27,580 nt of DNA from the IMG/VR virus record IMGVR_UViG_2671180903_000020; one strand, 5' to 3'. Below the pieces are notes generated by a model that saw only the letters and a list, made by a program, of their open reading frames with translations, ran no database searches and was not told the DNA's origin. This DNA comes from a virus (taxonomy: Duplodnaviria; Heunggongvirae; Uroviricota; Caudoviricetes). Positions 4,413 through 9,913 of the stretch are shown here, piece by piece. The position numbers and the translations under genes are program-made. Each line of letters begins with the position of its first letter. The stretch's first letter is position 1.

Positions 4413-4422
4413 TCAGTGGTTG

Positions 4423-4620
4423 TCATACCTGGTCTCTCTCATCTGCTTCTGCTTCTGCTTTCGCCACCATCATTTCCAGCTTTTGTGAAAGGGATGTTGC
4501 GAACGTATGAAATTCTTCGTCTGTTTCTACTGGTATTGGCACAAACCTGACTCCAATTTGAGCGAGGCTATGTGCCATCCCGATACTCGTTCTTAATTCA
4601 ACAGGAGATGCTTTGTGCAT
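4423..4620 (-). CDS. Small protein (65 aa) at the lambda orf63 position
   Basis: 28-nt overlap with the next gene, the same overlap I recall for lambda orf63/orf60a; positional call only. Confidence 0.45.
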   Translation of the reverse strand: MHKASPVELRTSIGMAHSLAQIGVRFVPIPVETDEEFHTFATSLSQKLEMMVAKAEAEADERDQV

Positions 4621-4781
4621 ACAGCCCCTCGCTTATTATTTATCTCTTCAGCCAGCCGCTGTGCTTTCAGTGGATTTCGGATAACAGAAAGGCCGGGAAA
4701 TACCCAGCCTCGCTTTGTAACGGAGTAGACGAAAGTGATCGTGCCTACCCGGATATTATCGTGAGGATGCTTCATTACCAT
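4593..4781 (-). CDS. Small protein (about 60 aa) at the lambda orf60a position; start may be GTG 4778 or ATG 4775
   Basis: Immediately downstream of exo with overlapping stop/start; positional call only. Confidence 0.45.
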
Positions 4782-5452
4782 TGCTCCCCATATACAAAAC
4801 CAATTTCAGCCAGTGCCTCGTCCATTTTTTCGATGAACTCCGGCACCATCTCGTCAAAACTCGCCATGTACTTTTCATTCCGCTCAATCACGACATAATG
4901 CAGGCCTTCACGCTTCATGCGCGGGTCATAGTTGGCAAAGTACCAGGCATCTTTTCGTGTCACCCACATGCTGTACTGCACCTGGGCCATGTAAGCCGAT
5001 TTTATGGCCTCGAAACCACCGAGCCGGAACTTCATGAAATCCCGGGAGGTAAACGGGCATTTCAGCTCAAGGCCGTTGCCGTCACTGCATAAACCATCGG
5101 GAGAGCAGGCGGTGCGCATACTTTCGTCGCGATAGATGATCGGGGATTCAGTAACATTCACGCCGGAAGTGAACTCAAAGAGGGTTCTGGCGTCGTTCTC
5201 GTACTGTTTTCCCCAGGCCAGAGCCTTAGCGTTAACTTCCGGAGCCACACCGGTGCAAACCTCAGCCAGCAGGGTGTGGAAGTAGGACATTTTCATGTCA
5301 GGCCACTTCTTTCCTGATCGGGGTTTTGCTATTACGTTGTGAATTTCTGAAGCTGTGATGACGCCGAGCCGTAATTTGTGCCACGCATCATCTCCCTGCT
5401 CGATAGCTCTCACGTCGATCCCAGTACGCTGCAGGATAATGTCCGGTGTCAT
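4775..5452 (-). CDS. exo: Lambda exonuclease (Red alpha, 225 aa)
   Basis: Protein [65 protein letters not shown]... matches lambda Exo. Confidence 0.95.
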
Positions 5453-6239: not shown

Positions 6240-6536
6240 TTATACCTCTGAATCAATATCAACCTGGTGGTGAGCAATGGTTTCAACCATGTACCGGATG
6301 TGTTCTGCCATGCGTTCCTGAAACTCAACATCGTCATCAAACGCACGGGTAATGGCTTTTTTGCTGGCCCCGTGGCGTTGCAAATGATCGATGCATAGCG
6401 ATTCAAACAGGTGCTGGGGCAGGCCTTTTTCCATGTCGTCTGCCAGTTCTGCCTCTTTCTCTTCACGGGCGATCTGCTGGTAGTGACGCGCCCAGCTCTG
6501 AGCCTCAAGACGATCCTGAATGTAATAAGCGTTCAT
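6240..6536 (-). CDS. gam: Gam, RecBCD inhibitor (98 aa short form only)
   Basis: Protein [60 protein letters not shown]... matches lambda GamS; upstream in-frame region reaches a stop without another start codon. Confidence 0.9.
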
Positions 6537-6590
6537 GGCTGAACTCCTGAAAATGGCTGTGAAAATATCGCCCGCGAAATGCCAGGCTGA

Positions 6591-6755
6591 TTAGGAAAAC
6601 AGGAAAGGGGGGTAGTGAATGCTTTTGCTTGATCTCAGTTTCTGTATTAATATCCATTTTTTATAAGCGTCGACGGCCTCACGAAACATCTTTTCATCGC
6701 CAATAAAAGTGGCGATAGTGAATTTAGTCTGGATAGCCATAATTGTTTGATCCAT
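6591..6755 (-). CDS. kil: Kil (host cell-division inhibitor), 54 aa from internal Met of the tracked ORF
   Basis: [43 protein letters not shown]... resembles lambda Kil; start ATG 6755 overlaps the 3' end of cIII by 32 nt as in lambda. Confidence 0.75.
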
Positions 6756-6918: not shown

Positions 6919-7887
6919 TTAGTAGGTTATTTTTGTTGCGAATACTTCGCCTTTTACGATGGCTGTTATGATATTTTTAGCAACATCTTCTGATGCACCA
7001 ACCTTGATAAGGTCAGCAAGTATTTTGTTATTTACTTCTTTCCGGTGAGCTTTATCCTTTGCTCTACGCTCTTCTTCTTCCTTGATTCTTTTTTCTTCTG
7101 CTATTCTGGCTTGCTCTTTTGCTTCAGCCTCGCGCCGGATTCGTTCAGCCTCCTCCTGTGCTTTTCGGCGTTCTGCTTCAATTGCCGCCTGCTTTTCTCT
7201 TTCAGCTCGTTCTGCTGCCTCTTTTGCTTCGCGCTGTGCTCGTTGCTCGGCTTCAATGCGTTCACGCTCTGCACGTTCCGCTGCGGCCTTAGCTTCTGCT
7301 TCTCGCCTTGCTGCTGCTTCAATTTCGGCTTTTGCCTTTGCTTCGGCTTCTGCTCTGGCTTTCTCTTCAGCTTCTCTTTTTAAGCGTTCTTCATGCTCTC
7401 GCTTTTCCTGCTCCGCTTTGAGTCTTGCCTCTTCTCTTTTGCGGTCAAATTCGCGATCCATCAAAATCGCTATTTCATGGTCAGACTCAATTTGCTTTGC
7501 GAGAGCTTCAGCTGCTGCCTTAGCTTCTTCTTCGGCTTTAATCCGCGCCTGTTCTTCCTCATAATCAGTAAGAGGCTGGCGCGCCTTGGCTTTCAGCTCA
7601 TCAAGGCGATCACGCACTGTCTTGCGGTTGGCATCAATTAGCTTTGGAATTTCCTTCAGTTCAGCAACAAGGTCTTTGCCAAGACCATCGAGATATGTTT
7701 TCGTCTGCGCAACTTTATACGCCAGAGAAGCGATCTCCTTTCTGCCCTTTGCCGTTGTGATATCAGGCACAAAGGACATAACTTCACGTTCAACCTTTTG
7801 AAGGATTTCTTCAATCTGGTCGGCAGACTGAAATACAGTCATTGCATTTGCTTTTTCAATAACAACTAAATCTGTTACTTCACTCAT
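6919..7887 (-). CDS. Coiled-coil protein (322 aa) with a long low-complexity E/A/K/R-rich central region, in the position lambda gives to ea10
   Basis: ORF in track; central ~150 aa of EAKAKAE/AERAERE-type heptad repeats; produces the spurious Cys/Phe/Ser-rich antisense ORFs at 7045..7801. Confidence 0.7.
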   Translation of the reverse strand: MSEVTDLVVIEKANAMTVFQSADQIEEILQKVEREVMSFVPDITTAKGRKEIASLAYKVAQTKTYLDGLGKDLVAELKEIPKLIDANRKTVRDRLDELKAKARQPLTDYEEEQARIKAEEEAKAAAEALAKQIESDHEIAILMDREFDRKREEARLKAEQEKREHEERLKREAEEKARAEAEAKAKAEIEAAARREAEAKAAAERAERERIEAEQRAQREAKEAAERAEREKQAAIEAERRKAQEEAERIRREAEAKEQARIAEEKRIKEEEERRAKDKAHRKEVNNKILADLIKVGASEDVAKNIITAIVKGEVFATKITY

Positions 7888-7921: not shown

Positions 7922-8290
7922 TCAGGCGGCTTTGATAGTCATATCATCTGAATCAAATATTCCTGATGTATCGATATCGGTAATTCTTATTCCTTCGCTA
8001 CCATCCATTGGAGGCCATCCTTCCTGACCATTTCCATCATTCCAGTCGAACTCACACACAACACCATATGCATTTAAGTCGCTTGAAATTGCTATAAGCA
8101 GAGCATGTTGCGCCAGCATGATTAATACAGCATTTAATACAGAGCCGTGTTTATTGAGTCGGTATTCAGAGTCTGACCAGAAATTATTAATCTGGTGAAG
8201 TTTTTCCTCTGTCATTACGTCATGGTCGATTTCAATTTCTATTGATGCTTTCCAGTCGTAATCAATGATGTATTTTTTGATGTTTGACAT
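7922..8290 (-). CDS. Strongly acidic hypothetical protein (122 aa)
   Basis: ORF in track; by my count 20+ Asp/Glu against fewer than 10 Lys/Arg; ends ...GIFDSDDMTIKAA; lies between ral and the coiled-coil gene. Confidence 0.55.
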   Translation of the reverse strand: MSNIKKYIIDYDWKASIEIEIDHDVMTEEKLHQINNFWSDSEYRLNKHGSVLNAVLIMLAQHALLIAISSDLNAYGVVCEFDWNDGNGQEGWPPMDGSEGIRITDIDTSGIFDSDDMTIKAA

Positions 8291-8310
8291 CTATTCATAT
8301 CCTCATAGAT

Positions 8311-8336
8311 AAAAAATCGCCCTCACACTGGAGGGC
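8311..8336 (-). terminator. Rho-independent terminator-like hairpin (GCCCTC-cagtgt-GAGGGC then U6 on minus strand)
   Basis: Read directly; located downstream of ral in the leftward transcription direction. Confidence 0.45.
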
Positions 8337-8472
8337 AAAGAAGATTTCCAATAATCAGAACAAATCGGCTCCTGTTTAGTTACGAGCGACATTGCTCCGT
8401 GTATTCACTCGTTGGAATGAATACACGGTGCAGTGTTTATTCTGTTATTTATGCCAAAAATAAAGGCCACTA

Positions 8473-8674
8473 TCAGGCAGCTTTGTTGTTCTGTTAACCA
8501 AGTTCTCTGGCAATCATTGCCGTCGTTCGTATTGCCCATTTATCGACATATTTCCCATCTTCCATTACAGGAAACATTTCTTCAGGCTTAACCATGCATT
8601 CCGATTGCAGCTTGCATCCATTGCATCGCTTGAATTGTCCACACCATTGATTTTTATCAATAGTCGTAGTCATA
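8473..8674 (-). pseudogene. ral: ral (restriction alleviation) carrying an apparent +1 frameshift and an in-frame TAA
   Basis: From ATG 8674: MTTTIDKNQWCG then the frame breaks at a CCC run (8639-8641); the +1 frame continues QFKRCNGCKLQSECMVKPEEMFPVMEDGKYVDKWAIRTTAMIARELG, then TAA (8494-8496), then QNNKAA and TGA at 8473. Total 202 nt versus the 201 nt I recall for lambda ral. Confidence 0.55.
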
Positions 8675-8744
8675 CGGATAGTCCTGGTATTGTTCCATCA
8701 CATCCTGAGGATGCTCTTCGAACTCTTCAAATTCTTCTTCCATA
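8658..8744 (-). CDS. 28-codon highly acidic ORF overlapping the ral start by 17 nt (lambda orf28 position)
   Basis: Hand translation MEEEFEEFEEHPQDVMEQYQDYPYDYDY*; AAGGTGA Shine-Dalgarno 4 nt upstream; geometry matches what I recall of lambda orf28. Confidence 0.4.
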
Positions 8745-8870
8745 TATCACCTTAAATAGTGGATTGCGGTAGTAAAGATTGTGCCTGTCTTTTAACCACA
8801 TCAGGCTCGGTGGTTCTCGTGTACCCCTACAGCGAGAAATCGGATAAACTATTACAACCCCTACAGTTTG

Positions 8871-9422
8871 ATGAGTATAGAAATGGATCCACTCGTTATT
8901 CTCGGACGAGTGTTCAGTAATGAACCTCTGGAGAGAACCATGTATATGATCGTTATCTGGGTTGGACTTCTGCTTTTAAGCCCAGATAACTGGCCTGAAT
9001 ATGTTAATGAGAGAATCGGTATTCCTCATGTGTGGCATGTTTTCGTCTTTGCTCTTGCATTTTCGCTAGCAATTAATGTGCATCGATTATCAGCTATTGC
9101 CAGCGCCAGATATAAGCGATTTAAGCTAAGAAAACGCATTAAGATGCAAAACGATAAAGTGCGATCAGTAATTCAAAACCTTACAGAAGAGCAATCTATG
9201 GTTTTGTGCGCAGCCCTTAATGAAGGCAGGAAGTATGTGGTTACATCAAAACAATTCCCATACATTAGTGAGTTGATTGAGCTTGGTGTGTTGAACAAAA
9301 CTTTTTCCCGATGGAACGGGAAGCATATATTATTCCCTATTGAGGATATTTACTGGACTGAATTAGTTGCCAGCTATGATCCATATAATATTGAGATAAA
9401 GCCAAGGCCAATATCTAAGTAA
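8871..9422 (+). CDS. sieB: Superinfection exclusion protein B (membrane protein); ATG 8871 (track starts at TTG 8868)
   Basis: Hydrophobic N-terminal half (MYMIVIWVGLLLLSPDNWPEYVNERIGIPHVWHVFVFALAFSLAINVH...) resembling lambda SieB; convergent with N, stop codons abut. Confidence 0.75.
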   Translation: MSIEMDPLVILGRVFSNEPLERTMYMIVIWVGLLLLSPDNWPEYVNERIGIPHVWHVFVFALAFSLAINVHRLSAIASARYKRFKLRKRIKMQNDKVRSVIQNLTEEQSMVLCAALNEGRKYVVTSKQFPYISELIELGVLNKTFSRWNGKHILFPIEDIYWTELVASYDPYNIEIKPRPISK

Positions 9423-9746
9423 CTAGGTAAGAGGAATCGATTTTCCCTTAATTTTCTGGCGTCCACTGCATGTTATGCCGCGTTCGCCAGGCTTGCTGTA
9501 CCATGTGCGCTGATTCTTGCGCTCAATACGTTGCAGGTTGCTTTCAATCTGTTTGTGGTATTCAGCCAGCACTGTAAGGTCTATCGGATTTAGTGCGCTT
9601 TCTACTCGTGATTTCGGTTTGCGATTCAGCGAGAGAATAGGGCGGTTAACTGGTTTTGCGCTTACCCCAACCAACAGGGGATTTGCTGCTTTCCATTGAG
9701 CCTGTTTCTCTGCGCGACGTTCGCGGCGGCGTGTTTGTGCATCCAT
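9423..9746 (-). CDS. N: Antitermination protein N (107 aa), internal start of the tracked 136-aa ORF
   Basis: MDAQTRRRERRAEKQAQWKAANPLLVGVSAKPVNRPILSLNRKPKSRVESALNPIDLTVLAEYHKQIESNLQRIERKNQRTWYSKPGERGITCSGRQKIKGKSIPL matches lambda N including the Arg-rich RNA-binding N-terminus. Confidence 0.9.
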   Translation of the reverse strand: MDAQTRRRERRAEKQAQWKAANPLLVGVSAKPVNRPILSLNRKPKSRVESALNPIDLTVLAEYHKQIESNLQRIERKNQRTWYSKPGERGITCSGRQKIKGKSIPLT

Positions 9747-9803
9747 CTGGATTCTCCTGTCAGTTAGCTTTGGTGGTGTGTGGCTGTTGTAGTCCTGAAC
9801 GAA

Positions 9804-9820
9804 CCCCCCCCCCCCCCCCC
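9804..9820. repeat. Homopolymer tract C17 (G17 on the N mRNA strand) in the N 5' leader
   Basis: Counted directly: gaac + 17 C + gcgattggcac; about 58 nt upstream of the N start codon. Confidence 0.9.
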
Positions 9821-9913
9821 GCGATTGGCACATTGGCAGCTAATCCGGAATCGCACTTCCGGCCAATGCTTCGTTTCGTATCACACACCCCAAAGCCTTC
9901 TGCTTTGAATGCT

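Follow-up and report, generated by a model that had tools for sequence, protein, structure and literature searches.

Organization of the Early-Left Region

The window analyzed here, a 27,580 nucleotide stretch of DNA from a virus of the class Caudoviricetes (IMG/VR record IMGVR_UViG_2671180903_000020), was found to contain a lambda-like early-left region which is 98–99% identical to that of phage lambda. Within this region, the ORF list gives a gene of 122 codons, running from ATG to stop, at positions 7922–8290 on the minus strand. It was assigned as ea10, encoding a 122-aa protein of the Pfam family DUF2528, from the ORF listing, its identity to the lambda gene and its matches to PF10800 and phrog_646. 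A Shine-Dalgarno sequence (GAGGA) was recognized by sequence inspection on the same strand at 8300–8304, 9 nt 5′ of the ea10 ATG.

The neighboring ORFs are N (9423–9833, minus strand; from the ORF list), sieB (8868–9422, plus strand; Pfam SieB match), a 28-codon ORF designated orf28 (8657–8743, minus strand; from the ORF list), which overlaps the start of ral, and the restriction alleviation gene ral itself (8494–8673, minus strand; Pfam Ral PF11058, E = 4.4e-44). The gene order continues as ral, ea10, a coiled-coil-like ORF of 322 aa (6919–7887, minus strand; phrog_1376 match), cIII, kil and gam, with ea10 lying between ral and cIII on the same strand in the leftward early operon. The initial annotation had placed the gene downstream of ral and a 28-codon acidic ORF in the early-left operon, and had described this neighborhood as one devoted to counter-defense. 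The gene order was as described, and both ral and gam are found in the same operon as ea10. The product of orf28, MEEEFEEFEEHPQDVMEQYQDYPYDYDY, contains 12 Asp/Glu and no Lys/Arg, resulting in a net charge of −12 over its 28 residues.

When compared with lambda, the ea10 gene itself is the same, while the 322-aa ORF before cIII and a nonsense codon in ral differ. The 322-aa ORF is absent from lambda, in which the gap between cIII and ea10 is only 72 bp. It is rich in Glu, Lys and Ala, belongs to PHROG 1376 (unknown function) and has a 100% identical counterpart in phage HK544, being present also in phages HF4s and Huey and in some Stx1a phages. Its N-terminal ~110–150 residues recur in Pseudomonas and Vibrio phages, and a Klebsiella match reaches only 39%. 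In ral, codon 60 is changed from AAA in lambda to TAA (8494–8496), giving a Ral protein of 59 aa without its last seven residues (KQNNKAA); the Pfam Ral match to the truncated protein covers positions 1–59 of 66. A 1-nt insertion 5′ of the internal Gam start (6505–6660, minus strand) breaks the long Gam frame, which is 138 aa in lambda, and only the 98-aa short form of gam (6240–6536) is intact here. A 119-aa protein of Escherichia coli (P0026) was also found in which residues 1–87 of Ea10 are fused to the last ~32–36 residues of Gam, which implies that some prophages have lost cIII, kil and the greater part of gam by deletion.

Expression Signals of ea10

The interval between ea10 and ral (8300–8490) is 98.7% identical to lambda. 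A terminator scan identified an intrinsic terminator directly upstream of ea10 on the minus strand (8307–8338), composed of a stem at 8338–8317 and a T-run which stops just short of the ea10 ribosome-binding site, and predicted a second terminator-like hairpin just downstream of ral (8466–8481, minus strand). In lambda, the Hfq-binding sRNA LPR1/PreS and the terminator tL2a have been located between ea10 and ral (10.1101/2024.10.31.621285; PMC12197685), and the terminator at 8307–8338 corresponds to tL2a and to the 3′ end of this sRNA, the interval with its two hairpins as a whole being equivalent to the tL2 terminators and LPR1/PreS. LPR1/PreS is Hfq-dependent and has been reported to target host dnaN (10.1101/2024.10.31.621285; PMC12197685). 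No Rfam 15 family matched anywhere in the window. The gene is read leftward from pL, and with the hairpins between ral and ea10 in the way it is expressed only once the polymerase has been modified by N. It follows that ea10 is a delayed-early gene and not one of those expressed first on entry.

Identity and Occurrence of ea10

Judged by its sequence, the acidic 122-aa protein is Ea10 of phage lambda, a known gene product of the known family DUF2528. Over 122 aa its identity to the lambda reference protein (lambdap45, NP_040621) is 100%, and the DNA agrees at 368 of 369 nt. Its match to PF10800 scored 160.6 bits against a Pfam gathering cutoff of 22 and covered all 104 profile positions (1–104), while the match to phrog_646 (PHROG 646, "unknown function") extended over residues 1–122 of 122. 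By tblastn, Ea10 was detected in 215 phage records, with an identity of ≥99% in 181; V00638, in which it is described as "reading frame ea10", and the lambda reference are among the records. The statement in the initial annotation that no direct homology could be seen was thus mistaken. The gene is widespread in E. coli, occurring at ≥95% nucleotide identity in 1479 of 5426 complete genomes, and is near-invariant there, with ≥99% nucleotide identity in 1316 of the 1488 matching records.

Ea10 contains 22 acidic residues (14 Asp and 8 Glu) and eight basic residues (6 Lys and 2 Arg), in agreement with the earlier estimate of more than 20 against fewer than 10. Its pI and net charge, the computation of which had been recommended at that stage, are 4.28 and −14.1 at pH 7, the latter equivalent to −0.116 per residue. 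Among the products of the window's 54 ORFs which reach 80 aa, it is the most acidic.

Although the gene is part of the best-studied phage, the literature search returned no tested function or phenotype for Ea10. GenBank record J02459 labels it "ea10 (ssb;122)", and the description "single-stranded DNA-binding protein" has been copied into many later records; no primary evidence for the "ssb" label or for ssDNA binding was found in the literature search. A CRISPRi essentiality map lists it as a non-essential "DUF2528 family protein" (PMC10695390), and prophages carrying a (sieB-ea10)<>cat replacement have been in use without apparent problems (PMC3961180). The latter study also states that an abundant protein formerly credited to kil is Ea10 (PMC3961180). 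One interaction was recorded for Ea10 in the lambda two-hybrid map (PMC3224144). According to a preprint of 2024, the role of the gene "is not fully understood" (10.1101/2024.10.31.621285).

Predicted Structure of Ea10

The AlphaFold2 model of Ea10, obtained with a 62-sequence alignment, has a mean pLDDT of 95.4 and a pTM of 0.87. It consists of a hairpin of two strands (residues 4–11 and 15–22), four helices (28–37, 41–48, 51–70, and 74–80), a long ordered loop (81–100) and a third strand (101–107). The protein is therefore confidently predicted to form a compact, strongly acidic alpha/beta domain. The initial annotation had drawn attention to an acidic C-terminal tail. The acidic C-terminus does exist, the last 13 residues being GIFDSDDMTIKAA, but it is not floppy in the model, in which the last two blocks have mean pLDDT values of 92 and 87 and a short helical turn is found at 114–116. 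This ordered segment would consequently form part of the domain and would not be a flexible tail of the SSB type. The motif FDSDDM was considered as a counterpart of the SSB C-terminal tip and was rejected, as the motif does not lie at the C-terminus and the segment is ordered in the model.

A Foldseek search of the PDB with the model yielded no match with E < 2. The fold matches included none of the known DNA mimics, such as Ocr, ArdA, Gam, and Ugi, and no OB-fold SSB, and the viral structure library yielded a single relative, which is uncharacterized. The weak resemblance to the SPFH/band-7 domain (HflK/C, stomatin, prohibitin) was judged too slight to be kept as a lead. At the sequence level, a single-sequence search of PDB chains gave no match, and the one profile-search match among these chains, DotZ, was discarded as a chance result (E = 0.9). 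No match to Ea10 was obtained in PADLOC or NCBIfam, and DUF2528 was the sole Pfam family matching at E up to 0.1. When 67 distant members were scanned for a second Pfam family with E values as high as 1, only scattered chance matches appeared (e.g., V-ATPase_H_C in 5 of the 67).

Conservation and Genomic Context of the DUF2528 Family

An exhaustive profile search recovered 594 cluster representatives at E ≤ 0.001, nearly all of which are single-domain proteins of 105–145 aa. The longer members showed no recognizable extra domain and no informative fusions. Acidity was found throughout the family, with a pI below 5 in 97.5% of 204 full-length relatives and a median net charge of −13. In the alignment, 17 columns are at least 50% Asp/Glu, compared with five which are at least 50% Lys/Arg; the hairpin, helices 1 and 2, the loop and the C-terminal segment all contain acidic columns. 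On this evidence, the acidity of Ea10 is a conserved family trait which exceeds chance and is under selection.

The strongest conservation is nevertheless located in a Gly/Trp/Pro-rich loop and not in the acidic positions alone. Among 128 diverse members, identity is 82% or higher at each of Y7, D22, F37, W38, R44, E90, G91, D96, G97, S98, and G100, with E90, G91, D96, G97, and G100 reaching at least 91%; L56, L59, and F81 are also highly conserved. The conserved loop reads E90-G91-W92-P93-x-M95-D96-G97-S98-x-G100-I101. Conservation of this kind indicates a single, specific site of binding or activity; a generic DNA-shaped surface would not need it.

The genomic contexts of the family were examined at diverse loci, 12 of 23 being Mu-like early operons. 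In these, the DUF2528 gene usually lies immediately or shortly after the gene for the transposase B ATPase, near Mu Gam and upstream of GemA and Mor. The hosts of the Mu-like elements comprise Burkholderia, Stenotrophomonas, Salmonella, Serratia, Citrobacter, Oceanobacter, Pseudoalteromonas, and several metagenome-assembled genomes. Elsewhere, single DUF2528 genes were found behind DNA polymerase A in the replication module of a lytic-type phage, behind a Toprim primase-helicase (L105), ahead of a C5 DNA methylase (L121) and beside an RdgC-like gene. No conserved partner gene was found among these loci, the neighbors varying with the type of phage. Their common denominator is an early same-strand module for phage DNA transactions and host takeover. 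DUF2528 was not found on conjugative plasmids: the plasmid hits were lambda-sized or lambda-like records or records bearing prophages, apart from a single weak hit (35%) in Aeromonas.

Comparison with Known Acidic Phage Proteins

In the initial annotation the protein was proposed as a candidate DNA mimic or anti-defense factor of the Ocr or ArdA kind, and it was therefore compared with known acidic and anti-restriction proteins. Ocr of phage T7 (gene 0.3) is, like Ea10, a small (117 aa), acidic and non-essential early phage protein. Ocr is also the first gene product expressed on entry and is all-helical and dimeric; Ea10, by contrast, depends on N for its expression and is predicted to be alpha/beta. 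There is no sequence-family or fold similarity between the two, and the charge per residue of Ea10 (−0.116) is half that of Ocr (−0.240), a comparison which concerns bulk charge only. ArdA and the anti-restriction proteins of conjugative-plasmid leading regions resemble Ea10 in being acidic, non-essential and carried on mobile elements, but differ from it in that neither a Pfam nor a fold match connects them and in that DUF2528 does not share their conjugative-plasmid location.

A closer parallel in charge is the short form of lambda Gam, the RecBCD inhibitor which is regarded as a DNA mimic. The Gam short form in the window is encoded in the same operon as Ea10, is similarly non-essential and has a comparable charge per residue (−0.101 against −0.116). 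The two sequences are, however, unrelated, and no Gam chain appeared among the fold matches of Ea10. DUF2528 genes are often located near Gam genes of the lambda or Mu type.

In the pL operon of phage P22, the place corresponding to that of ea10, with ral on one side and c3/cIII on the other, is occupied by gene 17 (positions 4415–4726 of the P22 record, L129), which encodes a 103-aa protein even more acidic than Ea10 (pI 4.05, net charge −17). The record annotates it with "allows growth on phage Fels2 lysogen". Homology between Ea10 and gene 17 was rejected (hhalign probability 0.15%), and the analogy is one of position only. By this analogy, it is suggested that the slot between ral and c3/cIII of lambdoid pL operons may collect acidic accessory proteins. 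The ral–c3 slot of P22 also contains orf78 (L129, positions 5077–5313), which encodes an unrelated small acidic protein with a pI of 4.38.

Possible Role of Ea10

A DNA-mimic or counter-defense role for Ea10 is plausible. The reading preferred here, which is put forward tentatively, is that Ea10 serves as a stoichiometric acidic decoy against a conserved host DNA-handling protein. Made abundantly after N antitermination, it would act stoichiometrically and not catalytically, docking on a host DNA-handling protein, conserved across the Proteobacteria, at the positively charged surface where that protein binds nucleic acids. Candidate classes of target would be a nuclease or defense component, or a nucleoid or repair factor. 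Recognition would take place through the invariant site, which comprises E20-I-D22 as the last residues of strand 2, the pair F37-W38, residue R44 and the loop E90-G-W-P-x-M-D96-G-S-x-G100-I. With the host protein neutralized, replicating or transposing phage DNA would be protected or favored. The binding to a host protein, the identity of the target and the consequence are what we infer, while the results above show the identity of the gene, its place in the operon, its acidity and the conservation of this acidity, the confident fold prediction and the distribution and contexts of the family. The proposal is based on the conserved acidity, the specific conserved site, the abundance of the protein, its single-domain form and the early DNA-transaction contexts of the family, and in addition on the Gam-like charge density and on the acidic analog in P22, gene 17, with its counter-exclusion annotation. 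Such a decoy would explain why ea10 is dispensable on laboratory K-12 and yet has been kept by lambdoid, Mu-like and some lytic phages.

Some observations weigh against the decoy. The near-invariance of ea10 in E. coli does not look like the outcome of an arms race, and the searches described above brought up no solved structure of a DNA mimic or inhibitor which Ea10 resembles. A wider formulation, in which Ea10 and DUF2528 as a whole would be an unrecognized phage counter-defense or host-takeover family with a fold of its own, common to lambdoid, Mu-like and certain lytic phages of Proteobacteria and directing an acidic nucleic-acid-like surface and the EGWPxMDGSxGI loop against a conserved host DNA-targeting factor, is possible but must be regarded as somewhat doubtful.

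The invariant D22, E90, D96, and S98 and the accompanying glycines could equally form a metal, ligand or catalytic site. Ea10 might then be a binder of small molecules or metals, or a small enzyme, such as a sponge for a signaling molecule or a cation-dependent hydrolase, which is considered unlikely. To the same low degree of probability, the site may be a pocket in which D22, E90, D96, S98 and the glycines G91, G97, and G100 are brought together with the aromatic residues Y7, F37, W38, and W92. The focusing of conservation on specific polar and glycine residues, in place of the whole surface, is in keeping with this alternative, as are the small size, single-domain form and early expression of the protein, and the large amounts in which it is made would fit a sponge. 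With a net charge of −14 and R44 as its single invariant basic residue, Ea10 is, on the other hand, poorly suited to binding anionic nucleotides. Tad, Acb and other sponges gave no fold match (the Foldseek probability for Acb4 was 0.02), nor was any enzyme family matched.

That Ea10 is a mimic of the Ocr/ArdA type, which would occupy the DNA-binding groove of type I (or type III) restriction-modification enzymes and so relieve restriction, is judged improbable. The strong and conserved acidity, the position of ea10 next to ral in an operon which also contains gam, and the one DUF2528 relative adjoining a phage C5 methylase are all compatible with such a function. Against it stand the sole assignment of the protein to DUF2528 with no match to the Ocr or ArdA families or folds, a charge density half that of Ocr on a predicted compact alpha/beta domain, late, N-dependent expression in place of expression first on entry, the absence of the family from conjugative plasmids and the dominance of the Gly/Trp/Pro loop in the conservation pattern.

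It is very improbable that Ea10 modulates host physiology or the lysis-lysogeny decision in the manner of cIII and kil, possibly through the FtsH/HflKC axis, an idea prompted by the weak SPFH-domain resemblance and by the neighboring cIII.

Least probable of all is that the "ssb" designation is literally correct and that Ea10 is a true ssDNA-binding protein aiding Red recombination or replication; the J02459 label, the many records which copy "ssDNA binding protein" and the recombination or replication neighborhoods of the family, including the relative next to an RdgC-like gene, are set against a predicted arrangement of three strands and four helices (beta-beta-alpha4-loop-beta) which is not an OB-fold, the lack of any SSB match in Pfam or NCBIfam and of any solved SSB among the fold matches, a net charge of −14 which is unfavorable for DNA binding, and the fact that Red recombineering constructs in which N through kil, including ea10, are deleted are fully functional.

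The result is a re-discovery of a known gene to which a reasonable hypothesis has been attached. What is new is that the "ssb" label is without structural support, that the predicted fold is without a solved relative, that several hundred sequence clusters have retained both the acidity and one particular loop and that lambdoid and Mu-like phages share DUF2528 in their early operons. Lambda is the best-studied phage, and Ea10 is an abundant early orphan present in the prophages of about a quarter of complete E. coli genomes, while databases continue to propagate a "ssDNA-binding" label which the predicted fold does not support. Should the counter-defense or host-takeover role prove true, it would supply a missing entry in the lambda gene map, Ea10 being one of its last abundant orphans, and would provide an annotation for several hundred Mu-like and lambdoid sequence clusters, and it might add a new anti-defense fold.

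Lambda-Identical ea10 in Public Assemblies

The first scan of viral contigs for relatives of Ea10 returned lambda-identical loci only, and in the genome scan for related loci a part of the matches was attributable to lambda contamination in unrelated assemblies. In these, lambda-identical ea10 was located on short or ~48.5-kb contigs (loci L089–L102, L106, L111, and L114; plasmid hits H59–H61). The contaminated-looking assemblies included those of Pseudoxanthomonas, Enterococcus, Paenibacillus, Shewanella, Bradyrhizobium, and Kitasatospora, together with a Stenotrophomonas "plasmid". Such contigs almost certainly represent lambda DNA contamination or spike-in in the public assemblies.
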